From positions 1 through 51,114 of the forward strand of contig CAYNSB010000028.1 in the NCBI GenBank assembly GCA_964399625.1: a stretch of DNA of 51,114 bases, given 5' to 3'. Numbering within the stretch: position 1 is the first letter of the stretch; every line of letters starts with the position of its first letter. Below, piece after piece: positions 7,964 through 20,180 of the stretch. The translations under genes and the position numbers were made by a program. The notes under the pieces are model-generated. The model had not been told where the DNA came from. It made no database searches and saw only the letters and a list, made by a program, of their open reading frames with translations. The DNA comes from an uncultured Phycisphaeraceae bacterium (GTDB lineage: Bacteria > Planctomycetota > Phycisphaerae > Phycisphaerales > UBA1924).

Positions 7964-8039
7964 TCCACTCACCAAGGCCTCGCCAACACGCGCGCCCAAG
8001 TGACGACGCCCGTCCACCCGACGCTGAACCGCCACCCGA

Positions 8040-8148
8040 CGCCGAGCCTGAGAAGGCTTTGCGACGAAGGCTCGGGTTGCTCCTTCTCTGCACGCGCAGT
8101 CGCTCGATCAACCCGAGCCTTCGCTCGCGGGCTCGCTCAGACTCGGCG
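8040..8148. repeat. Structured repeat element, copy 1 (roughly 110 nt; nested inverted repeats)
   Basis: Outer arms CGCCGAGCCTGAG (8040-8052) / CTCAGACTCGGCG (8136-8148); inner perfect 15-bp arms CGAAGGCTCGGGTTG (8065-8079) / CAACCCGAGCCTTCG (8109-8123). Also GAGAAGG/CCTTCTC. About 85 % identical to copy 2 at 10325-10432. Confidence 0.7.
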
Positions 8149-8186
8149 TTCGGTCCCGCCCGCGCCATCCGCATTACGATTGTCTC

Positions 8187-8942
8187 GTGAAACCCCGCTG
8201 GCGCAAGCCCCTGATCTGCGGCGCGATCGTGGGGGTCGTGTCGTCGGTGGCGGTGCCGGTCACGATCTCGATCGCGACCAATGCCAACAGATTTCCGTTT
8301 GTTTTCCTCAACAAGAACAAGTTGTGGCACGCGCGCGAGTCTTTGTTTTGTGACGAACGCACGCACGAGTTTGGCTACACGGTAAGCGCTGAATGGGTTG
8401 CAACTCACTACTTCATCCGGACGAGCATGCCCGATCCGAGAGTTTCAAGTCAATACCCTGCAGGAGTCGTGCCCGCGTGGCTGCCCCGGCCATACTCGCG
8501 CCACTGGACCCATGCGGCTGCCGTGGGATTTCCAATGCGCTCATTGTTCGGCTGGTCGTCGAAGGAAGAGAGCAAGATTGTTTCAGGGGGCCTTCGCACC
8601 GGTGACCCCGGGGTCTTTGACCACGGCTGGATTCAACTCGCACGCCTTCAACTCCCCGCGCGCGACTTGTACATCGAGTTCCCCTACCTCCCCATCTGGT
8701 CCGGCCTCATCGTCAACGCCCTCACCCACGCCGCGGCCTGGTCCGCGCTCTTCCTTGGACTCGCCCAGCTCCTCCCCTCCGCCCGTCGCGCACGCCGCAC
8801 CCGTCGCGGCCTCTGCCCCGCCTGCGCCTACGACCTCCGCCACGAACTCGCCTCAGGCTGCTCGGAGTGCGGGTGGAGGCGGGGCGGTCCGGCCCCGATG
8901 GGCGCACCCAGTTCTGAGAATCGGGCTACCTACTTTCAGTGA
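8187..8942 (+). CDS. Paralog 1 of a tandem three-gene family: two-TM membrane protein with a C-terminal Arg-rich segment and a CPxC...C(S/P)EC zinc-ribbon-like motif
   Basis: N-terminal TM (PLICGAIVGVVSSVAVPV), conserved GFPMRSLFGW and GWIQLA motifs, second TM (IWSGLIVNALTHAAAWSALFLGLAQLL), then RRARRTRRGLCPACAYDLRHELASGCSECGW. Local GC about 52 % in the 5' half. Confidence 0.6.
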   Translation: MKPRWRKPLICGAIVGVVSSVAVPVTISIATNANRFPFVFLNKNKLWHARESLFCDERTHEFGYTVSAEWVATHYFIRTSMPDPRVSSQYPAGVVPAWLPRPYSRHWTHAAAVGFPMRSLFGWSSKEESKIVSGGLRTGDPGVFDHGWIQLARLQLPARDLYIEFPYLPIWSGLIVNALTHAAAWSALFLGLAQLLPSARRARRTRRGLCPACAYDLRHELASGCSECGWRRGGPAPMGAPSSENRATYFQ

Positions 8943-8957
8943 AGTACGATTGGTGCG

Positions 8958-9683
8958 ATGCACAGGCGCTGGCGCCAGCCCCTGATCTGCGGCGCGATCG
9001 TGGGGATCGTGTCGTCGGTGATGGTGCCGGTTGCGATCTCGATCCTCAGCACGGCAAACGACCTGCCGACATATGTGCTGATCACGCGCGGCACGCAGCA
9101 CAAAGTCTGGCTGTACGACGATTCGGCCAAGATCACGCACCACAGAGCGGATTTCCATTGGGCCACCAGCCATTACAGCGCTTCCAGCGGCCCACCGAAT
9201 TTCGCGACCCCGCACACGCCTGGAACCGTGCCCGCGTGGATGCCTCGCCCAGACCAAGACAACGACATCCACGCATGCGCCGTTGGATTTCCTATGCGCT
9301 CGTTGTATGGGTGGACGCTCGTTCCGCGCTCGATGGTGCTCGGGTGCCGCACCGGGCTTCCTGATCGACGTCCGCCGCTCTTTGCCAGCGGCTGGATTCA
9401 ACTTGCGAGTTTCGAGAACCAGATTCGCCCGATCAGTGTCGAATTCCCGTATCTCCCCATCTGGTCCGGCCTCATCATCAACGCCCTGACCCATGCCGCG
9501 GCCTGGTCCGCGCTCTTCCTTGGACTCGCCCAGCTCTTCCCCTCCGCGCGTCGCGCCCGGCGCACCCGCCGCGGCCTCTGCCCCGCCTGCGCCTACGACC
9601 TCCGCCGCGAACTTGCCGCCGGCTGCCCCGAGTGCGGGTGGAAAAGATCGCTTTCGCGCGAACCCGAGCCCGCCCAACGCTGA
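8958..9683 (+). CDS. Paralog 2 of the tandem family (same architecture; 3' end about 95 % identical to paralog 1 at the DNA level)
   Basis: MHRRWRQPLICGAIVGIVSSV... N-terminus; shared GFPMRSLYGW, GWIQLA, EFPYLPIWSGLIINALTHAAAWSALFLGLAQLF, RRARRTRRGLCPACAYDLRRELAAGCPECGW. Confidence 0.6.
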   Translation: MHRRWRQPLICGAIVGIVSSVMVPVAISILSTANDLPTYVLITRGTQHKVWLYDDSAKITHHRADFHWATSHYSASSGPPNFATPHTPGTVPAWMPRPDQDNDIHACAVGFPMRSLYGWTLVPRSMVLGCRTGLPDRRPPLFASGWIQLASFENQIRPISVEFPYLPIWSGLIINALTHAAAWSALFLGLAQLFPSARRARRTRRGLCPACAYDLRRELAAGCPECGWKRSLSREPEPAQR

Positions 9684-9688
9684 AGTAG

Positions 9689-10336
9689 GTGCGGATGCCA
9701 AGGCTCCTCCGATGGGTGCTCGCGTCGATCCTGCTCGGAGCGATCACATCATTTGGATTGATGGTCCTTGGCGGCGCCGCAATGAGCCGCGGGCACCTTG
9801 GCTCATTCCGCGTGTTGGCCATCCGCGAGCCAGATGGGCGAGTGGTGATCTGGAGCGGAAATGTTTCGCTCCTCGGCGAAGACCTGCATCGATTCACGCA
9901 GTTCGATCCCAACGACTTCGGCGAGCCAGCACGCTCGCCCTGGTGGGTCTCCCAGATGGAGGGGCTCTCGATGGCTTCCGCGAGGACCTCCACGCGCGTG
10001 CTGATCTCGGGCTGGCCGATGCGTTCCATGATGGAGTACTCTCACGTGGAAATGTGCTCGATCGGAGCTGATACCGAGCACTTTGTTCGATGGTCCAAGG
10101 TGGTCGCCAACCTGGTGATTCACAGCCTCGCATGGAGTTTGCTCCTTCCGGTGCTCTCGGCCATCCACGCCAGATACCACTCGCGCCCCACTCTCCGCAC
10201 CCGCCGCGGCCTCTGCCCCGCCTGCGCCTACGACCTCCGCCACGAACTTGCCGCCGGCTGCCCCGAGTGCGGGTGGGGGCGGGGCGAGAGCACCGGATCG
10301 CCGCTGATGGGGCGCTCGCCCCGACGCCGAGCCTGA
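9689..10336 (+). CDS. Paralog 3 of the tandem family (more divergent N-terminal and central region; same C-terminal TM and zinc-ribbon-like tail)
   Basis: GWPMRSMMEY motif, TM HSLAWSLLLPVLSAI, then RTRRGLCPACAYDLRHELAAGCPECGW. Its stop codon lies inside repeat copy 2. Confidence 0.55.
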   Translation: MRMPRLLRWVLASILLGAITSFGLMVLGGAAMSRGHLGSFRVLAIREPDGRVVIWSGNVSLLGEDLHRFTQFDPNDFGEPARSPWWVSQMEGLSMASARTSTRVLISGWPMRSMMEYSHVEMCSIGADTEHFVRWSKVVANLVIHSLAWSLLLPVLSAIHARYHSRPTLRTRRGLCPACAYDLRHELAAGCPECGWGRGESTGSPLMGRSPRRRA

Positions 10337-10432
10337 GGAGGCTTTGCGCCGAAGGCTCGGGTTGCTCCTTCTTTGCGCGCCACAACGCACCAAAGCCCGA
10401 GCCTTCGCTCGCGGACTCGCTCAGACTCGGCG
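10325..10432. repeat. Structured repeat element, copy 2 (overlaps the stop of paralog 3)
   Basis: CGCCGAGCCTGAG (10325-10337) ... CGAAGGCTCGGGTTG (10350-10364) ... CAAAGCCCGAGCCTTCG (10391-10407) ... CTCAGACTCGGCG (10420-10432). Same nested-IR layout as copy 1. Confidence 0.7.
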
Positions 10433-10501
10433 TCCAGCAACCACCACGCGCCCGCTCGCCCATCACACGCTCGCTCCTCCCGCCCCCGGTACGATCCTGC
10501 G

Positions 10502-11575
10502 ATGTCCGACACGAGCCATGGTGGGCCGGAGGGGATCGCGGAAGGAGCCGTCGGGGCGGATGCTCGCCCCCACGCCCCCGAGGCCGAGGCTTCTCTTTAC
10601 CTGCACCCGCAGACGCTCGCGCGTCTGGGCTCCTTCGAGCTGCGGGCCAAGATGATCGTCGAGGGCGTGATGAGCGGGCAGCACCGCTCGCCGTACCACG
10701 GCTTCTCCGTCGAGTTCGCCCAGCACCGCCCCTACGTCGCGGGCGATGACCTTCGCCGCCTGGACTGGAAGGTCTACGGGCGCTCCGACAAGCTCCACCT
10801 GAAGCAGTACCAGCAGGAGACCTCGCTCGACCTGGTCGTGCTCGTCGATGCGTCGGGGTCGATGCGCTATGGCTCGCGCACGTTCGAGGACGCGTCGGGC
10901 GCGGGGCACACGCTCAGCCCGGACGGTCGCTCCAACTGGTCCAAGTTCGACCACGCGACGGCCGTCGCCGCGGCGCTGGCGTACATCACGCTGCACCAGG
11001 GCGATCGGGCGGGGCTGGTGATCTTCGCCGACGACGTGCGCGGGATGGTCCGCCGGTCGAGCTCGCAGGGCACCTGGCGGCAGATCGTCGGGGCGCTGGC
11101 GGCGCACTACGTGCCCGATCGGCGTCCGGGCGTGCAGGAGATCGGTCGCGCGACGGACTTCGGGCGCGTCATCGATCAGTCCCTCGCCAAGCTCACCAAC
11201 CGCTGCCTGCTCGTGCTCATCTCCGATTTCTTCGGCGACCCCGAGGAGCTTCGCGCGGCGCTGGCGCGCGTGCGCCATCGCGGGCACGACCTGATCGCGT
11301 TCCAGGTGCTCGATCGCGAGGAGCTGGAGTTCGACTTCAAGGACGCCGCGCCCTTCGAGGGCCTCGAGGGCGAGGAGCGTCTGCGCGTCGATCCGCGGGC
11401 GCTTCGCGCGGGCTACCTCGCGGCGATCCGTCGGCACCTGGACAAGGTCGAGCGCGTGTGCCGGGCGTTCAACTTCGATCACCACGTGATCAACACGCAC
11501 GACTGGCTGGGCCCGCCGTTGGCGGCGTTCGTGGCGCGGCGGAACGCGCAGATCAAGCGGAGCAAGCAGGCGTGA
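10502..11575 (+). CDS. DUF58-domain protein (vWA-like, Bat/MoxR-associated)
   Basis: ...SPYHGFSVEFAQHRPYVAGDDLRRLDWKVYGRSDKLHLKQYQQETSLDLVVLVDASGSM... is the DUF58 signature. Start placed at MSDTSHGG (10502). Confidence 0.8.
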   Translation: MSDTSHGGPEGIAEGAVGADARPHAPEAEASLYLHPQTLARLGSFELRAKMIVEGVMSGQHRSPYHGFSVEFAQHRPYVAGDDLRRLDWKVYGRSDKLHLKQYQQETSLDLVVLVDASGSMRYGSRTFEDASGAGHTLSPDGRSNWSKFDHATAVAAALAYITLHQGDRAGLVIFADDVRGMVRRSSSQGTWRQIVGALAAHYVPDRRPGVQEIGRATDFGRVIDQSLAKLTNRCLLVLISDFFGDPEELRAALARVRHRGHDLIAFQVLDREELEFDFKDAAPFEGLEGEERLRVDPRALRAGYLAAIRRHLDKVERVCRAFNFDHHVINTHDWLGPPLAAFVARRNAQIKRSKQA

Positions 11576-11582
11576 GGAGCGC

Positions 11583-13913
11583 ATGACCTTCCTCAACCCC
11601 TTCCTTGCCTTCGCGGGGCTCGCGTGCGTCGGGATTCCGATCCTGATCCACATCCTGATGCGCCGTCGGCGTCGCCCGATCCAGTGGGCCGCGATGCGCT
11701 TCCTGCTCGAGGCGTACCAGCAGCAGCGCAAGCGTCTGCGGTTCGAGCAGTGGCTGCTGCTCGCGTCGCGCTGCCTGCTCGTGGCGCTGATCGCGATCGC
11801 CATCGGGCGCCCCGTGCTGGGCGGGGCGCTGGGGGGCGCGCCCGGCGGGCCGACGACGCTGTACCTGGTGATCGATCATGGTCTTGCGAGCGGGGCGCAG
11901 GATGTGCCGGGCGCACCGAGCGCACTCGCCCGCTCGCGCGAGCGGGCGCTGAAGCTGCTGGCGCAGCTGGACGCGAACGCGGGGGACCGGGTCGCGCTCA
12001 TCTCCGGCGCCGCGCCCGCGCGGGCGCTGGTGCTGCCCGCGACGTCGGACCTCTCGGGCGTGCGCGAGCTGATCGAATCGCTCCGCACCACCGACGGGGC
12101 GAGCGATCTGTCGGGCGCGATCGCGCTGGCCCGCGCCGACGCCGCGAGCGAGGCGAGCGCACCCTCGCAGCGGGCGCTGGCGGTGCTGAGCGACTTCCGC
12201 GTGGGCTCGATCGATCTGGCGGTGGACGCCGGCACGCCCGCGGCCGGGGCGTCCGAGAGCGGCGCGTTCACGCTCCTGGCGGACCCTCCGGGCGAGGCGG
12301 CGATGACGAACGTGTCGATCGCGGGCGTGGAGCCGCTGCGTCCGCTGATCGTGTCGCCGCGCCGGGGCGAGGCGTCCACGCTGGCGCAGACGCCCGTGCG
12401 CGTGGCGCTGCGGCGCTCGGGAGACCTCTCCCAGGCGCAGACGACGATGGTGCGACTCTCGATCTCGCCGCCGGCGGGCGGGGCGGCGGTGCCCGTCGGG
12501 CAGGCGTCGTTCCGCTGGGCGCCCGGGCAGTCGCAGGGCCTGGCGGCGGGGGCGATCGACCTCTCCCGGGGCGGCACGCCCTGGGGCTCGGCGGTGCTCG
12601 CGGCGCAGATCGACGCCGACGCGATCGCGGGCGACAACACCTTCCGGCACACGATCGAGCTGCGCCAGGCGCTGCGCGTGGGGATCATCGCCCCGCGGGG
12701 CACGCCCCGCGCGGGGCTCGACCAGCTCGACGCTGGGGACTGGTTCCGCCTCGCGTTGCAGACCGCCGACGCGGAGATCGAGATCACGGACATCGAGCCC
12801 GCGGCGGTGGACGCCGCACGCCTCTCGCCCCTGGACGCGGTGATCCTCCCGCGCCCGGAGGCTCTCTCGGATGATGCGTGGCGGCGCGTGCGGGCCCTGG
12901 CCGAGGCGGGCGGGCTTGTGCTCGTGTGCCCGCCGGCGGGCGTCACGGTGCACGCCTGGGGCGATGCGATGGCCCGCGCGCTGGGCACGGGGTGGAGCGT
13001 GCCGCGCGAGGTCCGCACGGGCAGCGCGACGATCGCGAGCGCTCGCCAGGTCGATTCGTCGTCGGACCTCTTGGCGCTGCTCGACGCGGAATTGCCCGAC
13101 CTGGCGCGCCCCGTGCGCGTGTCGCGCTCGCTCCCGCCCGAGGGCGTCGCGCCGGCCCAGACGCTGCTGTCGCTCTCGGATGGCGCGGCGCTGATCGCGA
13201 TGGCCCGCCCGGGTCAGAGCGAGACGAGCGCGCCCAAGGAGGGCGGCGCGGCGAAGGAACTCTCGGCGCCCGCCGCGGGGCTGATCGTGTACCTGGGCGT
13301 GGCGCCGTCGTTCGAGTGGACGGACCTGCAGGCGCGCCCGCTGATGGTGCCGCTCGTGCACGAGCTGGTGCGCCAGGGCGTGGGTCGGGCGAGCGGGCGC
13401 TGGGCGGAGATCGCCGGTCGCGTGCCCCGCGTGCCCGCGCGCACCTCGGTGCTGCGCCCGACGGAGGAGGACCAGGGCGTGATCCGCGTGGACGCGAACG
13501 GCACGAGCGAGGCGATCGCGCGGGCGGGCGCGTACCGCGCGCTGGACGATCGCGGGCTGCTGCGGGGCGTGGTGACCATCAACGCCGACGCCGGCGCAGG
13601 ACGCGTGGACGCGCAGCCCCGCGCGGCGGTGGAGCGCTGGCTCGCCTCTCGCGCGGGTTCGGGCGGCGCGGTGTCGTGGCTCGGGCCCGGGGGCGCGCTC
13701 GCGCGACCGACGCCCTCGGCGGACCTGCGCGCGACGCTCGGGCGCGGGCAGGACAACGCGCGGCTCATCCTGATCGCGCTCGTGGGGGCGCTGGCGCTGG
13801 GCGTCGTTGAGCTCGCGATGGCGCGCTGGTTCAGCCACGCGAGCGTGCACACGACCCGGAGCGGGGCGTCGTCCGTTGCCGGCCCATCGCCACGATCGGG
13901 GAGCGGCGCGTGA
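11583..13913 (+). CDS. BatA-like protein with the N-terminal double-transmembrane 'aerotolerance regulator' domain
   Basis: MTFLNPFLAFAGLACVGIPILIHILMRRRRRPIQWAAMRFLLEAYQQQRKRLRFEQWLLLASRCLLVALIAIAIG matches the two-anchor BatA N-terminal domain. 776 aa. Confidence 0.7.
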   Translation: MTFLNPFLAFAGLACVGIPILIHILMRRRRRPIQWAAMRFLLEAYQQQRKRLRFEQWLLLASRCLLVALIAIAIGRPVLGGALGGAPGGPTTLYLVIDHGLASGAQDVPGAPSALARSRERALKLLAQLDANAGDRVALISGAAPARALVLPATSDLSGVRELIESLRTTDGASDLSGAIALARADAASEASAPSQRALAVLSDFRVGSIDLAVDAGTPAAGASESGAFTLLADPPGEAAMTNVSIAGVEPLRPLIVSPRRGEASTLAQTPVRVALRRSGDLSQAQTTMVRLSISPPAGGAAVPVGQASFRWAPGQSQGLAAGAIDLSRGGTPWGSAVLAAQIDADAIAGDNTFRHTIELRQALRVGIIAPRGTPRAGLDQLDAGDWFRLALQTADAEIEITDIEPAAVDAARLSPLDAVILPRPEALSDDAWRRVRALAEAGGLVLVCPPAGVTVHAWGDAMARALGTGWSVPREVRTGSATIASARQVDSSSDLLALLDAELPDLARPVRVSRSLPPEGVAPAQTLLSLSDGAALIAMARPGQSETSAPKEGGAAKELSAPAAGLIVYLGVAPSFEWTDLQARPLMVPLVHELVRQGVGRASGRWAEIAGRVPRVPARTSVLRPTEEDQGVIRVDANGTSEAIARAGAYRALDDRGLLRGVVTINADAGAGRVDAQPRAAVERWLASRAGSGGAVSWLGPGGALARPTPSADLRATLGRGQDNARLILIALVGALALGVVELAMARWFSHASVHTTRSGASSVAGPSPRSGSGA

Positions 13914-16336
13914 ACACCCTGCTCAACAGGCTGCTCGGGCTGTCGGGGATGGGCTTCGGGGATCCGGGCGTCGAGTTCTCGTTCGCGCGACCGATCCCGG
14001 CGTGGGGGTGGCTTGCCGCCCTGGTGCTCGCGGGCGTGCTCGCGGGGTACGGGTACTGGCGTCAGGACGGCCCGCGGGCGGCGCGGCGCGGGCTGGCGCT
14101 CTTGCGGGCCCTGGCGCTGCTGGCGATCCTGCTGCTGATCTCCGGGCCGCAGCTCATCCGCCCCAACGAGCGGATCGAGAAGGACTGGGTCGTGTTCCTC
14201 GTGGATCGGTCCGCGTCGATGACGATCCCCGATGCCCCGAGCGCCACGGGCGCGCGGGTGACGCGGGAGAGCCAGTTGCAGGAGGCGCTGCTGCGGGCCA
14301 GGCCCGAGCTGGCCAAGCTCGCCGCGGAGCGCAACGTGCTCTGGCTCGGGTTCGACGCGGGCGCGTTCGATCTGCACGCGGGCGAGCAGGGCGTGGACCT
14401 GGGCTCCCCGGGCGGTCGGCGCACGAGCCTGGGCGCCGCGCTCGATCAGGCGCTCTCGCGTGTCTCGGCTCGCCCCGTGGCGGGCGTGGTGATCCTGTCG
14501 GACGGGCGCTCGAGCGACGAGGCGAGCAAGCCCGCGCTCAAGCGCCTGCAGAGCGAGCAGATCCCCGTGCTCGCGCTGCCGCTGGGAAGCCCCGAGCCCG
14601 TGGTGGACCTCGCGGTCGCCTCGGCCGAGGCGCCCTCGCTCGCGTTCATCAACGACACGATCCCGGTGCAGGTGAAGATCGATCGCCTGGGCGGCGGGGC
14701 GGAGGCGCCGATCCCCCGCGGGCGCGTGCAACTGGTGGACACCGCGACGGGGCTCGTGCTCGACGATCGCGCCCTGCCCGTGGACGCCGGCGCCTGGAGC
14801 GAGGGGCGCGCCCGCCTGACGCTGACGACCAAGCCCCAGCCGGTGTCGCCCGATCGCCCCGCGCGGGCCGCGGCGCGGACGTGGCAGGTACGCCTGGTCC
14901 CCGAGCAGCCCGACCTGATCCCCGAGAACAACACCGCCTCGCTGACGATCGAGCTGGTGGACCGCCAATTGCGCGTCGCGTTCTTCGACGGGTACCCGCG
15001 CTGGGAGTTCCGGTACGTCAAGAACCTGCTGCTGCGCGAGCGCTCGATCCGCTCGTCGAACCTGCTGCTGGCCGCGAACCGCCAGTACCTGCAGGAGGGC
15101 GACGTGCTGCTGGACACGCTCCCGCGTTCGCCCGAGGACTGGGCGAAGTTCGACGTGGTGATCATGGGCGATCTGCCCGCGTCGCTGTTCGCGCGGGAGC
15201 AGCTCGAGCAATTGCGCGAGCACGTGGCGATCCGCGGCGCGGGGCTCCTGTGGATCGCCGGGCCCAGCGCCACGCCCGGCGCCTGGCGCGACACGCCCCT
15301 GGCGGACCTCATCCCCTTCGCGCTGGGCGCCGGCGATGCGCTCAACCAGGGCGCGGGCGTGAACGTCTGGAACGAGCCCGTGCTGCTCCGACCGACGCCC
15401 GCGGCGCAGCGCCTGAACCTTTTCCAGCTCGCCGACCCGGACCAGCCCTGCGTCCCGGGCGTCGAGGGCTGGCCCGCGGTGCTGGGCGATCCCGGCGTGC
15501 CGTGGGCGCGCCTGCAGTTCGCGCAGCGGATCGATCCCGCGGCGCTCAAGCCCGCGGCGGAGGTCCTCGCCACGCTCGCGCCGGGCGAGGCGACGGGCGA
15601 CGCGACGCCGGGCGTGATCACGATGCGCTACGGCGCGGGGCGCGTCATGTACGTCGCGAGCGACGAGATCTGGCGCTGGCGCTACGCGCGGGGCGAGACG
15701 CTGCCCGAGCGGTTCTGGCTCCCGCTCATCCGCCTGCAGGGGCGCGAGAGCCTGGCCCGCGCGGCGCGCCCCGCGGCGCTGGAGGTCTCCCCCAAGCGTC
15801 CCCAGATCGATCAGCCCGTCTCCATCGCCGTGCGCCTGCAGGACCAGTCGCTCGTCGATGCCGCGCCGGCGCGGCTCTCGGCGCGCGTCCGCCCGCTCGA
15901 CGACACGCGCGGACGCTCGAGCGTGGACCTCACGCTGGCGCCCGAGAGCGCCGCCGGCGCCCGCCCGCTGACGCGCTCGTTCCTCGCGACGTGGACCCCG
16001 TCCGAGCCCGGTCGGTACCGCATAGAGGTCCAGGACCCGTTCCTCGCCCAGTCCTCGCTCGCGGAGGATGTGGAGGTCACGGTTCCCGACGATGAGCTCC
16101 GCCACCCCGAGACGGACCATCCGCTACTCACACGCCTGGTGGCCCAGGGCGGCACGGGGAGCACCACGCTCGCGGGCGACCAGCTCGCGCGGGTCGAGAA
16201 GCTTCCACGGCGGGATGTGCACGTCGCGGGCACGCCCGACACCAAGCCCCTGTGGGACCGCCCCATCGTGCTGGCGCTGCTGCTGGGGCTGCTGACGCTC
16301 GAGTGGGCCGGACGACGCCTGATCAAGCTCTCGTGA
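13910..16336 (+). CDS. vWA-domain membrane protein (BatB-like) with a C-terminal GATase1-like domain
   Basis: N-terminal TMs, VVFLVDRSASM vWA metal-ion-binding start, later DVVIMGDLP block. Start overlaps the upstream stop by 4 nt (13910/13913). Confidence 0.6.
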   Translation: MNTLLNRLLGLSGMGFGDPGVEFSFARPIPAWGWLAALVLAGVLAGYGYWRQDGPRAARRGLALLRALALLAILLLISGPQLIRPNERIEKDWVVFLVDRSASMTIPDAPSATGARVTRESQLQEALLRARPELAKLAAERNVLWLGFDAGAFDLHAGEQGVDLGSPGGRRTSLGAALDQALSRVSARPVAGVVILSDGRSSDEASKPALKRLQSEQIPVLALPLGSPEPVVDLAVASAEAPSLAFINDTIPVQVKIDRLGGGAEAPIPRGRVQLVDTATGLVLDDRALPVDAGAWSEGRARLTLTTKPQPVSPDRPARAAARTWQVRLVPEQPDLIPENNTASLTIELVDRQLRVAFFDGYPRWEFRYVKNLLLRERSIRSSNLLLAANRQYLQEGDVLLDTLPRSPEDWAKFDVVIMGDLPASLFAREQLEQLREHVAIRGAGLLWIAGPSATPGAWRDTPLADLIPFALGAGDALNQGAGVNVWNEPVLLRPTPAAQRLNLFQLADPDQPCVPGVEGWPAVLGDPGVPWARLQFAQRIDPAALKPAAEVLATLAPGEATGDATPGVITMRYGAGRVMYVASDEIWRWRYARGETLPERFWLPLIRLQGRESLARAARPAALEVSPKRPQIDQPVSIAVRLQDQSLVDAAPARLSARVRPLDDTRGRSSVDLTLAPESAAGARPLTRSFLATWTPSEPGRYRIEVQDPFLAQSSLAEDVEVTVPDDELRHPETDHPLLTRLVAQGGTGSTTLAGDQLARVEKLPRRDVHVAGTPDTKPLWDRPIVLALLLGLLTLEWAGRRLIKLS

Positions 16337-16472
16337 TTCGAGTGGGTTTGGGTGCCTTTTGGTGGTTGCGACGACGAACGATCGATTGACACGACGGTTA
16401 CTCTCCTGACCGACCCGACGGGCCCGCGCATCCGTACAGAAGACATCCGAACGAGGAGAAATCCGCCGATAC

Positions 16473-19400
16473 TTGCTCGGCTCTTCGCCCATGCACGACT
16501 CGCCCGACAGCACCCCGTCCCTCGGCTCGCGCGTGTCGGGCATCGAGTCGCGCCTGCGGACGGTGCGCGCCCGGGCCCGCACGCTGCTTATCGCCTCGGG
16601 CCTGGCGAGCGTCGCGACGATCGTGATCGGGTCGCTGGTGCTCGCGGCGTTCCTTGATTACCTCGTGCGCTCGCCCGATTGGCTTCGCCTCGCGCTGTGG
16701 ATCGCCGGGGCGCTGGGGCTCGTGTGGCTCGTGCGCCGGCACGTGCGCCCGGCGTGGGGCTTCCGCCCCGATCTCTCGCAGGTCGCGCTGCGCCTGGAGC
16801 GCTCCGACGCCGGGCGTGCCGCGGGGCTGGAGGGCCTGCTCACCTCCGGGCTCGAGCTGGCAAAGGAACTCGACGCCGCGCCGGGCCCGGCGACGACGCG
16901 GGCGCTGGGGACTTCGGTCGTCGCCCGGGCGGTGGACTCGTTCGCCGGCGTGCGGGCGGGCGCGCTGCTCGATCTGCGCGGGGCGCGCCGGCACGTGCTG
17001 GCGATGCTCGCGTGCGTCGCGGGCGCCGTGGGCATCATCGCGGCGGTGGGCCCCACGCCCACGCGCACCGCGCTGACGCGCCTGCTGGCCCCCTGGGCCG
17101 GGGCGCAGTGGCCCAAGCGCACCGAGATCGTCGATGCGACCCGCCTGACGGTGCACCCGCTGGGCGCGGCGATCCCCCTGCGCGCGGCGCTCACGCACTC
17201 GGACCGCCCCGAGGGGCAGGCCCGCATCACCGCCAGCTATCGCGTCGTCACCGACGGCACGCCCGGGCCCACGCGCCAGGTCCTGCTCACGGGGCAGCGC
17301 CGCACGATCTCTCTGCCCGACGAGGGGCGGGCGCCCATCTCGGGCGAGCTGTACGAGCGCCTGATCGACGCGGAGGTCGCCGTCGCGCCCGGCGTGCATT
17401 CGCTGGAGTACTGGCTCACCTCCGACGATGACGCGACCCCGCGGACGCGGGTGCTGCTGGTCGAGCCGCCGGCCGTCGTCGCCGCCAGCGCGACCATCAC
17501 GCCCCCCGAGTACGCCCGCCCGCTGCTGTCGAGCGAGGGGGCGCGGTTCGCCTCGGGGCAGCGCGAGCTGGGCACGGGCACGGACCAGCGGGCCGTGGTG
17601 GGCCCGATCCTTGCCGGCTCGTCCGTCGAGCTCACGATCGCGTTCAACAAGCCCGTCCGTTCGCCCGGCGAGGTGGACCGCGAGGCGCTGGCCCGGTTCC
17701 TCAACCAGGTGTTCCGCGGGGCGGACCTGGGCACGATCGAGCGCGCCTCGTTCACGCCCGCCGCGTGGACGATCGTCTTCTCGCCGCGGGCGAGCCTGCG
17801 CCTCCCCGTGTACGCCAGCGACGAGCACGGGCTGGCGACCCGCGAGGAGGGCGCGTTCTCCTTCGACCTCGCGGAGGACAAGCCGCCCAGCGTGTCGGTG
17901 ATGGAGCCGCGCGAGGACGAGTCGGTGCTCCCCGGCGCGAGCATCGGGGTAACGGGCGAGGCGCGGGACGATGTGGGCATCGGCTCGCTCGTGCTCACGC
18001 GCCAGAGGGCCACCCCGCCCGCGGGCACCACCAGCAAGGTGCCCGAGCTCACGGGCGATCCCGAGACGTTCGCCTCGCTGCCCGAGGGCGCGCCCCAGCC
18101 CGGGGCCCGCAGCGTCCACGCGACGCTCGAATTGGCGGGGCTGGACCTGAAGCCGGGCGATGAGGTCTGGCTCCACGCGATCGCGCAGGACACCTACGCC
18201 GCGCGCACCGACTCGGGCGAGGCCCGCCACGATCCGGTGCGCTCCAGCCCGCGCAAGCTCCGCATCATCCGCGAGGAGGAGCTGGTCGCGCAGATCCGCC
18301 AGGAGCTCTCGGGCGTGCGCAAGGCCGCGCTCCGCCTGGACGCCGAGCAGGGCGACCTGCGCAAGAGCGTGGACCAGGGCGCGGTGACGAGCGAGGAGCG
18401 TCGCCGCCAGGCCGGGCTGACACAACGCCTGTCGCAGCAGCGTGAGGTGGTGGACCGTCTGTCGCAGCGGACCGAGCGCAACCGCCTGAGCGACCAGACG
18501 CTCAAGGACCTTCTGGGCGAGTTGTCGTCGTCGTTCGACGCCGCCGCGAGCCCCTCGGAGCGTGCCGCGGGACAGATGGACCAGCAGGCCCGTGCCCAGG
18601 CGCCCGCGGGGCAGCCCGAGGCCGAGCGCGCCGAACTGCCCGAGCGCGAGCGGGCGTCGATCGCCAAGGACCAGGACGCGGTGCGCGAGCAGCTCGCGCG
18701 CGTCGCCGAGCTGCTCGACAAGGGCGAGGACTCCTGGCTCGTCGGGCGCACGCTCCAGAAACTCCTCGACCAGCAGCGCTCGTTGCAGTCGCAGACCCGG
18801 CGCGCCGCCGAGCGCTCCCAGGGCAAGCGTCCCGCGGACCTCACGCCCCAGGAGCGCGGGCTGCTCGAGCAGCTCGCGGACCAGCAGCGTCGTCTCGCCG
18901 AGCAGGCGCGCTCCGCCCTGGACCAGCTCTCGCAGCGCTCCAAGCAGATGCAGTCCGTGGACACCGCGCAGTCCCAGGCGATGAAGCAGGCCGAGCAGCG
19001 CGGGCGTCAGCAGCAGCTCGAGCAGAAGATGTCCGAGGCCGCGCGCAACGTCGAGAAGAACCAGACGAGCTCGGCCGACGCCCAGCAGCAGGAGGCGACG
19101 AACGCCCTCGAGCAGATGCTCCAGGATCTGAACAACGCGCAGAAGAACCGCGACGCCGCCCTGCGTCGCATCCTCGCCTCGCTCATCGAGTCTCTGCAGC
19201 GGCTCGTGGCGGACCAGGAGTCGCAGCTTGCGGCGCTGGACAAGGGCATCGAGGGCGGCGCGCTCGACGGGCTCGCGCCCCCGCTCATCGCGCTCAATCG
19301 CGCGACGCTGGGAGCCGCGGAGCAGGCCCGGGGCGACAAGGCCTTCGCCGCGCTCGCCAAGATCATCGAGCTCGCCGCCGACGCCCAGGGCAAGGGCGTC

Positions 19401-20180
19401 TCGGCCCTCCGCGCCGCGCCCGTCGATGCCAAGCTCGCGCAGGAGCAGGAGCGCGAGAGCCTCCGCCAGCTCCGCCTGGCGCTCGAGCAGGCGCAGCGCC
19501 TGCAGCAGAAGCAGCAGCAGAACGAGCAGGACCAGAAGCGCCAGCAGCTCCGCGCGATCTACCGCGAGCTGCTCGAGACGCAAGTCGCCCTCAAGGGCGA
19601 GGTCGATCCATTCACCGGAAAGCCCCTGGAGCGCCGCGATCGCATCGCCCTGCGCGCCCTGGGCGAACGCCAGGAGCAGATCCAGAAGAAGCTCGCCGAG
19701 ACCCGCGCGATGAGCCAGGACATGCAGGACGCCGGCGTCATCCAGCTCGCGCACGACCGCCTCGACGCCGCGACGGGCGTCGCCGCCAAGAAGCTCAAGA
19801 ACGGGTCCGCCGACGCGTCGGTCGCCCGCAACCAGGACTCGGCGATCCGCGTGCTCAAGGCGCTCGTGGAGGCCCTGGACGATCGCGCCAAGGACAACGA
19901 CGAGTTCCAGGACGAGTCGCAGGGCGGCGGCGGGGGACAGAACGGACAGGGACAGAAGCCCCCGCTGGTGCCCCCGCTCGCGGAACTTCGCCTGCTCCGC
20001 TCCATGCAGCAGGAGATCGGCGAACGCACCCGCGCGACCGACGAATCACCCGATGCCGACGAGCTGCGCCGCCTGGGCGACGACCAGCAGAAGCTCTTCG
20101 ATCGGGGCAACGAGCTGATCGAGAAGCTCAAGAAGCAGCAGGGCGGGCCCGAAACGCCCAAGGAACCCAAGGGAGACTGA
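16473..20180 (+). CDS. Large (1235 aa) membrane-anchored protein with a roughly 500-aa Gln/Glu/Arg/Ala-rich coiled coil; DUF4175-like
   Basis: Two N-terminal TMs, a beta-rich middle, then a long coiled coil (…QQQQNEQDQKRQQLRAIYRELLETQ…) and a Gly/Gln-rich tail. The architecture matches the DUF4175 proteins found beside BatA genes. Confidence 0.5.
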   Translation: MLGSSPMHDSPDSTPSLGSRVSGIESRLRTVRARARTLLIASGLASVATIVIGSLVLAAFLDYLVRSPDWLRLALWIAGALGLVWLVRRHVRPAWGFRPDLSQVALRLERSDAGRAAGLEGLLTSGLELAKELDAAPGPATTRALGTSVVARAVDSFAGVRAGALLDLRGARRHVLAMLACVAGAVGIIAAVGPTPTRTALTRLLAPWAGAQWPKRTEIVDATRLTVHPLGAAIPLRAALTHSDRPEGQARITASYRVVTDGTPGPTRQVLLTGQRRTISLPDEGRAPISGELYERLIDAEVAVAPGVHSLEYWLTSDDDATPRTRVLLVEPPAVVAASATITPPEYARPLLSSEGARFASGQRELGTGTDQRAVVGPILAGSSVELTIAFNKPVRSPGEVDREALARFLNQVFRGADLGTIERASFTPAAWTIVFSPRASLRLPVYASDEHGLATREEGAFSFDLAEDKPPSVSVMEPREDESVLPGASIGVTGEARDDVGIGSLVLTRQRATPPAGTTSKVPELTGDPETFASLPEGAPQPGARSVHATLELAGLDLKPGDEVWLHAIAQDTYAARTDSGEARHDPVRSSPRKLRIIREEELVAQIRQELSGVRKAALRLDAEQGDLRKSVDQGAVTSEERRRQAGLTQRLSQQREVVDRLSQRTERNRLSDQTLKDLLGELSSSFDAAASPSERAAGQMDQQARAQAPAGQPEAERAELPERERASIAKDQDAVREQLARVAELLDKGEDSWLVGRTLQKLLDQQRSLQSQTRRAAERSQGKRPADLTPQERGLLEQLADQQRRLAEQARSALDQLSQRSKQMQSVDTAQSQAMKQAEQRGRQQQLEQKMSEAARNVEKNQTSSADAQQQEATNALEQMLQDLNNAQKNRDAALRRILASLIESLQRLVADQESQLAALDKGIEGGALDGLAPPLIALNRATLGAAEQARGDKAFAALAKIIELAADAQGKGVSALRAAPVDAKLAQEQERESLRQLRLALEQAQRLQQKQQQNEQDQKRQQLRAIYRELLETQVALKGEVDPFTGKPLERRDRIALRALGERQEQIQKKLAETRAMSQDMQDAGVIQLAHDRLDAATGVAAKKLKNGSADASVARNQDSAIRVLKALVEALDDRAKDNDEFQDESQGGGGGQNGQGQKPPLVPPLAELRLLRSMQQEIGERTRATDESPDADELRRLGDDQQKLFDRGNELIEKLKKQQGGPETPKEPKGD

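Follow-up and report, generated by a model that had tools for sequence, protein, structure and literature searches.

Three tandem genes of an uncultured Phycisphaeraceae bacterium belong to a large unnamed family of two-helix membrane proteins with a predicted zinc-ribbon tail

Here we describe three consecutive genes on the forward strand of a 51,114-nucleotide (51-kb) stretch of DNA, hereafter the window, from an uncultured Phycisphaeraceae bacterium (contig CAYNSB010000028.1 of assembly GCA_964399625.1). The three genes, referred to below as the cassette, occupy 4 % of the window; they are genuine genes, paralogues in a local tandem array, and are members of a very large family without a name that occurs chiefly in Phycisphaerales and other Planctomycetota. 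This family has no characterised relative detectable by sequence or by fold and is built of familiar parts, namely a hairpin of two transmembrane (TM) helices, a predicted beta-rich ectodomain and a short predicted zinc ribbon, with nothing pointing to a new mechanism. The genes, in coordinates of the window, are the following.

8187-8942, forward strand: gene 1 (paralogue 1), 251 amino acids, GTG start, product identical to the database protein P0002; first TM helix (TM1), variable centre, second TM helix (TM2), Arg-rich linker and four-cysteine (C4) tail, with Cys 210, 213, 225 and 228 encoded at nucleotides 8814-8873
8958-9683, forward strand: gene 2 (paralogue 2), 241 amino acids, ATG start; layout as in gene 1, with Cys 208, 211, 223 and 226 encoded at nucleotides 9579-9638
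9689-10336, forward strand: gene 3 (paralogue 3), 215 amino acids when counted from GTG 9689; Cys 176, 179, 191 and 194 encoded at nucleotides 10214-10273

The first-pass annotation of this DNA had reported three consecutive forward-strand genes of 251, 241 and 215 amino acids separated by gaps of 15 nucleotides (nt) between genes 1 and 2 and of 5 nt between genes 2 and 3, and the listing of open reading frames (ORFs) agrees with it; the public gene call for gene 3 (P0004) starts at ATG 9695, six bases later, which gives 213 amino acids. It had also regarded the genes as a paralogue cassette with a two-TM, N-in/C-in layout and a four-Cys tail, and the alignment, hydropathy, charge and motif analyses bear this out. 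The three proteins can be aligned over their whole length, the identity being 59 % between the products of genes 1 and 2 and 34 % between those of genes 3 and 1; gene 3 is a divergent copy, with a shorter centre. Each protein has two hydrophobic segments (Kyte-Doolittle), with a net charge of +2 to +3 before TM1 and of +5 to +6 after TM2; this distribution obeys the positive-inside rule and fits the N-in/C-in topology that we infer for all three. A six-frame motif scan of the 51 kb finds the tail pattern C..C...C..CG in these three places only. As to the motifs that were said to be shared, G(F/W)PMRS and the tail motif RTRRGLCPACAYDLR.EL..GC.ECGW are common to all three genes, whereas GWIQLA and the TM2 version IWSGLI.NALTHAAAW are confined to genes 1 and 2. 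TM1 was considered as a cleavable signal peptide as well, which is unlikely, its hydrophobic stretch being about 27 residues long and modelled by AlphaFold2 (AF2) as one long helix.

A word-index search returned 19 unnamed relatives, which became the seed of a family profile, and an exhaustive search with the profile collected 39,529 cluster representatives with E <= 1e-3, of which 12,663 had E <= 1e-10 and 1,641 had E <= 1e-30. Their source name was 'hypothetical protein' in every case seen, and an exact look-up of the contig that encodes the protein P0001 came back empty. The 78 loci fetched in a genome scan come almost all from metagenome-assembled genomes (MAGs) of Phycisphaerales, Phycisphaeraceae or other Planctomycetota, and several of these MAGs supply two or three separate loci. 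The window's own proteins are matched by the family hidden Markov model (HMM; hmmsearch, HMM positions about 1-223) with E = 1e-60 for gene 1 (positions 3-223), 9e-60 for gene 2 and 1e-41 for gene 3; at 90 % identity each of them is a singleton among about 15 billion sequences. The first-pass annotation could not place the family, and this holds for the curated models (Pfam, NCBIfam, PADLOC, PHROGs) as well as for the known folds. Scans of the three proteins against Pfam and NCBIfam gave only sub-threshold zinc-ribbon noise, PADLOC gave nothing, and PHROGs only noise at E >= 0.18; a Pfam scan of 111 relatives gave no match above noise either (DZR or DZR_2 at E <= 0.01 in seven of the 111). No informative match came from the sequence-profile search of the PDB, in which matches to NccX (a TM helix, E = 0.044) and to generic zinc knuckles were discarded as uninformative, and structure comparison recovered neither a PDB fold nor a viral fold. 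Phage and plasmid collections searched with tblastn had no match, Rfam had nothing in the window at the gathering score, and nothing relevant was found in the literature on the motif or on the family in Phycisphaerae/Planctomycetes. A well-characterised housekeeping family was not recovered by any of the profile searches.

Conservation was read from an alignment of 111 sequences, with numbering as in paralogue 2. Near-invariant are V23, A24 and W25 at the periplasmic end of TM1; the loop G110-x-P112 (G-[WF]-P); P164, P167, W169, G171 and N175 at the entry of TM2 (LPxxPIWxGxxxN); and, in the tail, R198, R202, R205, G206, C208, C211, Y213, D214, L215, R216, C223, P224, E225, C226 and G227. Apart from the loop, the periplasmic region between the two helices is hypervariable, with great variation in sequence and in length. 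Genes 1 and 2 have every near-invariant feature of the family, namely the G-x-P loop, the TM2 entry P..P.W.G...N, the Arg cluster and C..C.YDL(R)......CPECG, while gene 3 retains G-W-P, the W, the N, the Arg cluster and all four Cys, is without the two Pro of the LPxxP entry to TM2 and has K in place of G171. The order of parts in one unit is a basic cytoplasmic N-terminus, TM1, a periplasmic beta-rich region, TM2, an Arg-rich helix and the C4 mini-domain. In the AF2 model of paralogue 2, computed from the same 111-sequence alignment (pLDDT 79, pTM 0.70), these parts appear as a helix at residues 3-32, about eight strands at 49-164 and a helix at 169-204, followed by short tail strands at 207 and 214; the TM helices and the tail have a pLDDT of about 90 or higher.

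The tail is a C4 mini-domain of about 25 amino acids, in which two CPxCG knuckles stand 9-12 residues apart around an invariant Y-D-L-R face and in which the four Cys are invariant or nearly so in the 111 sequences. Its layout suits a C4 zinc ribbon of the zinc_ribbon_2/DZR type, and it would bind a metal ion as such, in agreement with the first-pass annotation, where CPxC…C(S/P)EC was read as a four-Cys zinc ribbon. Like the ribbons of PF13240, PF12773 and PF18912, it is a CxxC...CxxC mini-domain of about 25 amino acids next to a TM helix; it differs from them in its strictly C-terminal position, in the Arg-rich helix before it and in the Y-D-L-R face, none of which is part of those models. 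The matches to DZR_2 (13 bits, with a Pfam cut-off of 27; E = 0.09 in genes 1 and 2) stay below the level of Pfam membership, and weak matches to PF13240, PF12773 or PF13248 were seen on some small proteins picked up by a profile of the tail. In the fetched loci the combination of TM helix, Arg cluster and CxxC..CPECG tail also ends 35 other ORFs that are devoid of the rest of the family profile and range from small ORFs up to 600-780 amino acids. ORFs of this kind, with the module TM helix, Arg cluster, CxxC-x-Y-D-L...CPECG, were seen in loci L001, L010, L014, L043, L055, L070, L072, L078, L080 and others.

Tandem organisation recurs in the family. According to the family HMM, full-length copies stand alone in 52 cases of the fetched loci and in tandem arrays of two, three and four in 9, 6 and 3 cases, respectively, and two to four units are present in 68 of the best 150 profile representatives. 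Three metagenomic proteins, P0020, P0021 and P0022, are in-frame fusions of three, two and two complete units, joined by a short linker with no start codon between them, and each of the fused units has its own two TM helices and its own zinc-ribbon tail. Such fusion is topologically allowed because each unit is N-in/C-in, and by the Rosetta-stone logic the existence of natural fusions suggests that neighbouring units physically associate.

The genes of the family are embedded in housekeeping neighbourhoods, with no recurrent partner gene linked to them. Neighbour clustering and a Pfam analysis of 100 immediately adjacent genes gave PEP_mutase/ICL in 12, NTP_transferase in 5, citrate synthase, deoxyhypusine synthase and aromatic amino-acid hydroxylase in 4 each, and FUR in 3; sigma factors, kinases, response regulators, toxins, transposases and phage genes were absent from these 100, FUR being the sole regulator family seen. 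In ten genomes (loci L015, L016, L018, L020, L026, L027, L033, L034, L035 and L037) one and the same gene of the PEP-mutase/isocitrate-lyase family has a member of the present family 4-144 nt downstream of it, in some cases with citrate-synthase-like genes nearby. At this site the mean identity is 69 % (57-95 %) for the enzyme and 28 % (20-51 %) for the family gene, whose centre, 134-186 amino acids long, is only 15-19 % identical; these values indicate that change in the centre, by divergence or by replacement, is far quicker than in the sequences around it. The distance matrices of the enzyme and of the family gene do not correlate significantly (rho = 0.23, p = 0.14). The copy number at the site is one in eight loci and four in two, and, taken together with the in-frame fusions, this justifies the epithet 'rearranging' used in the first-pass annotation, though at the level of the family only.

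The DNA of the cassette is peculiar as well; one conserved block of it is listed here.

8674-8877, forward strand: block of gene 1 coding for TM2 and the tail, rich in C at third codon positions (C3); its counterparts are 9439-9642 in gene 2 (92 % identity) and, for the tail only, 10184-10286 in gene 3

The G+C content (GC) is 0.714 in the window and 0.647 in the cassette, the 5' parts of the cassette genes averaging 0.60-0.62; the lowest values of the whole 51 kb over 200 nt (0.515) and 300 nt (0.557) are both in gene 1, and 54-64 % of the lowest 2 % of all 200-300-nt intervals sit in the cassette. At third codon positions (GC3) the three genes have 0.76-0.79, versus 0.929 (standard deviation 0.024, minimum 0.868) in 30 other genes of the window. 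The AT-rich islet that had been noticed earlier is therefore real, and so is the preference of its conserved 3' part for C-ending codons. In the segments coding for TM2 and the tail, the ratio C3/(C3+G3), where G3 stands for G at the third position, is 0.80-0.82, at or above the background maximum, as compared with 0.47 ± 0.10 in 1148 background intervals of 69 codons. The four- and six-fold codon families of these segments (8673-8879, 9438-9644 and 10181-10285) contain 36 codons with C and 5 with G, the background fraction of C being 0.43 (P < 0.001). When codons were resampled from the window's usage given the amino acids, a C3 count of 33.5 was expected and 51 was observed; since the excess persists after this control, it is no artefact of amino-acid composition. 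The two anomalies differ in their range. Here and in some MAGs the tail has a strong C3 bias, which in the family as a whole is only a weak trend (0.60 versus 0.54 in the genes nearby, the tail exceeding them in 37 of 61 loci). An excess of A/T at third positions in the body of the family genes was found in 56 of the 61 loci (0.29 versus 0.15 in neighbours, Wilcoxon p = 2.5e-10), which means that low GC3 travels with the family and is no mark of a recent horizontal arrival.

The 3' ends of paralogues 1 and 2 had been given as about 95 % identical over some 200 nt; the identity is indeed high, but its value is 92 % over 204 nt. The 103-nt tail DNA is 83-88 % identical among all three genes, and the 5' ends of gene 1 (8196-8288) and gene 2 (8967-9059) are 86 % identical over 93 nt. 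Between these two genes the synonymous divergence (dS) is 0.19 in TM1 and 0.29 in TM2 and the tail, versus 1.4-1.8 in the centre, the GFPMRS block included. Where both genes encode the same amino acid, the codon is identical at 49 of 59 positions in TM2 and the tail (40.4 expected from regional usage, z = 2.6), at 20 of 22 in TM1 (15.2 expected, z = 2.4) and at 10 of 18 in the middle block (8.3 expected, z = 0.8). For the very recent duplication or gene conversion proposed in the first-pass annotation, this excess of z about 2.5 at the ends of genes 1 and 2 is slight support; the match of gene 3, on the contrary, needs no conversion, as the tail DNA of unrelated MAGs is already 80-88 % identical to the tails of the window (tail codon identity with other genomes has a mean of 0.60 and reaches 0.92). 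Low dS as a proof of gene conversion was dropped, because extreme codon bias and a near-invariant peptide account for much of it. As judged from the codons, gene conversion at the gene ends is plausible. Upstream of both genes 1 and 2 the same octamer is found.

8175-8182, forward strand: octamer TACGATTG, 4 nt before the start of gene 1; an identical copy at 8945-8952 lies 5 nt before the start of gene 2

Read directly from the sequence, TACGATTG is not Shine-Dalgarno-like; perhaps it was merely copied along with the rest of the unit.

On either side of the cassette lies a copy of a 115-nt direct repeat that was missed in the first-pass annotation; these copies (8035-8149 and 10320-10433) are the only two in the 51 kb and are 87 % identical overall and 93-97 % identical in blocks. 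Each copy lies within a long imperfect palindrome.

8030-8155, no strand assigned: REPIN-like long imperfect palindrome, copy 1, in the spacer between an aminotransferase gene and gene 1; half-sites GACGCCGAGCCTGAG at 8038 (+) and 8136 (-)
10315-10440, no strand assigned: REPIN-like palindrome, copy 2, overlapping the last 17 nt of gene 3, upstream of a DUF58 gene; half-sites at 10323 (+) and 10420 (-)

Each copy folds as one hairpin (about 115 nt, -78.6 kcal/mol and z -7.6 for copy 1; -67.2 kcal/mol and z -5.3 for copy 2), with the half-sites GACGCCGAGCCTGAG mutually inverted, and the stop codon of gene 3 falls inside copy 2. REPINs are extragenic doublets of inverted REP (repetitive extragenic palindromic) sequences that form hairpins and are mobilised by RAYT transposases (PMC3116915). 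Both copies are likewise extragenic inverted-repeat doublets with a hairpin of about 110 nt, save for the 17-nt overlap of copy 2 with gene 3. A further likeness is provided by locus L006 (Phycisphaerales MAG OFTM92), where half-sites related to the window palindrome bracket a putative HUH/Y1 transposase gene that follows straight upon two tandem members of the family described here. This ORF, at 10017-10670 of L006, is a putative REP-associated tyrosine transposase and has the motifs HVHALL and KYIEQH. Unlike in the REPIN/RAYT system, only two copies are visible in the 51 kb, copy 2 overlaps a gene, and the match of the L006 ORF to Pfam Y1_Tnp is sub-threshold (E = 0.0019, 18.7 bits versus a cut-off of 23); no RAYT homologue was found in the window itself. 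Since about 17 spacers of the window are at least 120 nt long, the chance of two such elements falling in adjacent spacers is roughly 0.1, and the bracketing of the cassette is possibly coincidental. A reading of the repeats as attachment (att) sites is not preferred, each copy being itself a long palindrome. In another Phycisphaerales MAG (locus L031) a 113-nt inverted repeat (77 % identity, 8696-8807 and 10511-10621) flanks a two-copy array, its individual arms showing no hairpin folding.

The explanation that we put forward joins the identity and architecture of the family, of which we are nearly certain, with a more speculative part, in which the proteins serve as an oligomerising membrane chassis with a docking tail; the composite is held tentatively, at slightly less than even confidence, and its oligomer and docking parts, when taken separately, are rather doubtful. 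According to it, the constant TM hairpin together with the Arg/zinc-ribbon tail would be the working chassis, and the units would be packed next to one another in the inner membrane, forming hetero-oligomers, which we suppose because of the tandem genes and of the natural in-frame fusions of two to four units. The invariant Y-D-L-R face and the Arg-rich helix may form a docking surface, by which the zinc ribbon would dock to a shared cytoplasmic partner or to an anionic surface (protein, nucleic acid or lipid head groups), whereas the periplasmic part would be a rapidly diversifying ectodomain that acts as a binding or spacer module. The array would have originated by local duplication with divergence concentrated in the centre, its gene ends being kept alike by purifying selection on the near-invariant peptide and probably by some gene conversion; the flanking 115-nt repeats would be extragenic REPIN-like palindromes and no attachment sites.

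Several points weigh against this explanation. The residues conserved on the periplasmic side might just as well belong to a site for a ligand or a lipid, and residues 36-100 of the AF2 model are of low confidence. The word-index search with the tail-only profile listed only proteins of 36-90 amino acids, so it is uninformative as to partners or co-occurring known domains. The strong C3 bias of the tail-coding DNA does not follow from it, and, as this local bias inflates synonymous identity, the low dS of the gene ends is partly an artefact.

Other functions can be envisaged for the same parts. By analogy with known systems, the tail might be a lineage-specific C-terminal sorting or docking tag served by one dedicated machine of Phycisphaerae, the three genes being its ordinary clients; this we consider unlikely. 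Lineage-specific paralogous C-terminal domains have been argued to imply undescribed sorting systems, and the signals of LPXTG/sortase, PEP-CTERM/exosortase and GlyGly-CTERM/rhombosortase are built of a conserved motif followed by a TM helix and a C-terminal basic cluster (PMC3237569). The same tripartite logic is seen here in LPxxPIW, TM2 and RRxRRxRR; as in those systems, the module is restricted to a lineage, occurs in many paralogues of one genome and is unlinked to any partner gene, and it stands at the extreme C-terminus both of the family members and of the 35 other ORFs. However, known signals end at or shortly after the basic cluster, while here 35-45 residues follow, including a folded Cys4 domain and up to 20 residues beyond it, and LPxxPIW is absent from the other tail-bearing ORFs. 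Besides, TM1 is conserved together with TM2 and looks like an uncleaved anchor co-varying with it, which suggests a stable helical hairpin over a cleaved anchor, and neither a candidate processing enzyme nor a known cognate enzyme can be named for the tail. Equally unlikely, in our opinion, is an extended version, in which TM helix, Arg cluster and CPxC-x-YDLR-x(5-9)-CPECG would constitute an undescribed Phycisphaerae-wide C-terminal docking/sorting domain, many such proteins addressing one cytoplasmic or membrane machine, and in which the conserved 5' and 3' ends would give recombination a handle, so that the arrays could exchange and diversify their periplasmic ectodomains, that is, a cassette-type variation system for inner-membrane proteins. 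As for transmembrane sensors of the anti-sigma or one-component type, whose zinc ribbon would hold or release a regulator, they would agree with the predicted N-in/C-in topology, in which a periplasmic domain is coupled to a cytoplasmic metal-binding module, and with the many paralogues bearing different ectodomains. Zinc-binding anti-sigma (ZAS) factors, too, are membrane proteins with an extracytoplasmic domain and a cytoplasmic zinc site, the latter being predicted in our case; their HxxxCxxC motif belongs to an N-terminal helical domain, and their gene is adjacent to that of its extracytoplasmic function (ECF) sigma factor. Here, in contrast, there is neither an HxxxCxxC domain nor an adjacent sigma factor (none in the scanned neighbours of the window or among the 100 family neighbours), zf-HC2/ZAS and other anti-sigma models give no match at E <= 1, the family neighbours include no kinase or response regulator and FUR in 3 of 100 only, and the ectodomains are unconserved even between positional orthologues, a poor fit to a defined ligand; we regard a sensory role as highly improbable. 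The same grade is given to a conflict system, in which the proteins would confer immunity or exclusion against periplasm-acting toxins or phage in an arms race. It would account for tandem divergent paralogues, for a copy number variable at a syntenic site, for the hypervariable ectodomain and for the atypical codon usage, but it has no match in PADLOC or PHROGs, no viral fold match and no toxin, nuclease or mobile gene beside the arrays, which lie in housekeeping neighbourhoods. The signalling, anti-sigma and toxin/immunity readings of the first-pass annotation thus get no support from gene context, PADLOC or Pfam.

It remains to consider the origin of the cassette, described in the first-pass annotation as horizontally acquired. 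If it were a recently acquired mobile islet, the 115-nt direct repeats would mark its insertion, and in favour of this are the GC3, about seven standard deviations below that of the window genes, the lowest-GC intervals of the 51 kb, the position of the sole two repeat copies, the singleton status of the three proteins and a synteny breakpoint downstream of the aminotransferase gene in relatives. The pair formed by this gene and Cons_hypoth698 is kept in about 14 metagenomic loci (best 66 % identity), in none of which the DUF58 gene follows the aminotransferase; a family gene is nearby in only three of them, in a different orientation, and the scan, made with the upstream aminotransferase, yielded no close relative and thus none with an empty site. 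Against such an acquisition speak the family-wide character of low GC3 (56 of 61 loci) in a family that is native to Phycisphaerae, the occurrence of other members at conserved positions amid housekeeping genes, and the lack of a phage or plasmid match. Of the traits of a genomic island, the cassette has the atypical composition, while the scans revealed no mobility genes near it and no tRNA: tRNA genes are absent from the window, and there is no integrase or transposase among the seven flanking genes scanned to either side, which include those of a P-type ATPase, a PAS protein, Cons_hypoth698 and aminotransferase V upstream and of DUF58 and BatA-VWA downstream. The repeats, finally, are extragenic palindromes of the REPIN type, whose placement in adjacent spacers may well be due to chance, as estimated above. 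We therefore do not uphold horizontal acquisition and hold a recent mobile islet to be very unlikely.

For the window, our findings chiefly correct the earlier view: its compositional anomaly belongs to the gene family and is no evidence of recent transfer, and the cassette is an unremarkable example of a large, dark family marked by the tail that its members share. The cell envelope and cell biology of Phycisphaerae and other Planctomycetota are unusual, and of the proteins specific to these lineages few are characterised; a family of tens of thousands of sequence clusters with several loci per genome, the constant cytoplasmic tail of which recurs on other membrane proteins, is a good candidate for a lineage-specific system of envelope or membrane organisation. 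A profile of the family would give a name to thousands of 'hypothetical proteins', and the tail would be a handle for finding the partner machinery.

Downstream of the cassette, at 10373-20180 of the window, there is a Bat/aerotolerance-like cluster. It opens with the DUF58 protein, the start of which is probably an ATG near 10503, and continues with BatA-VWA (11583-13913) and two large proteins without a Pfam match (13910-16336 and 16473-20180).

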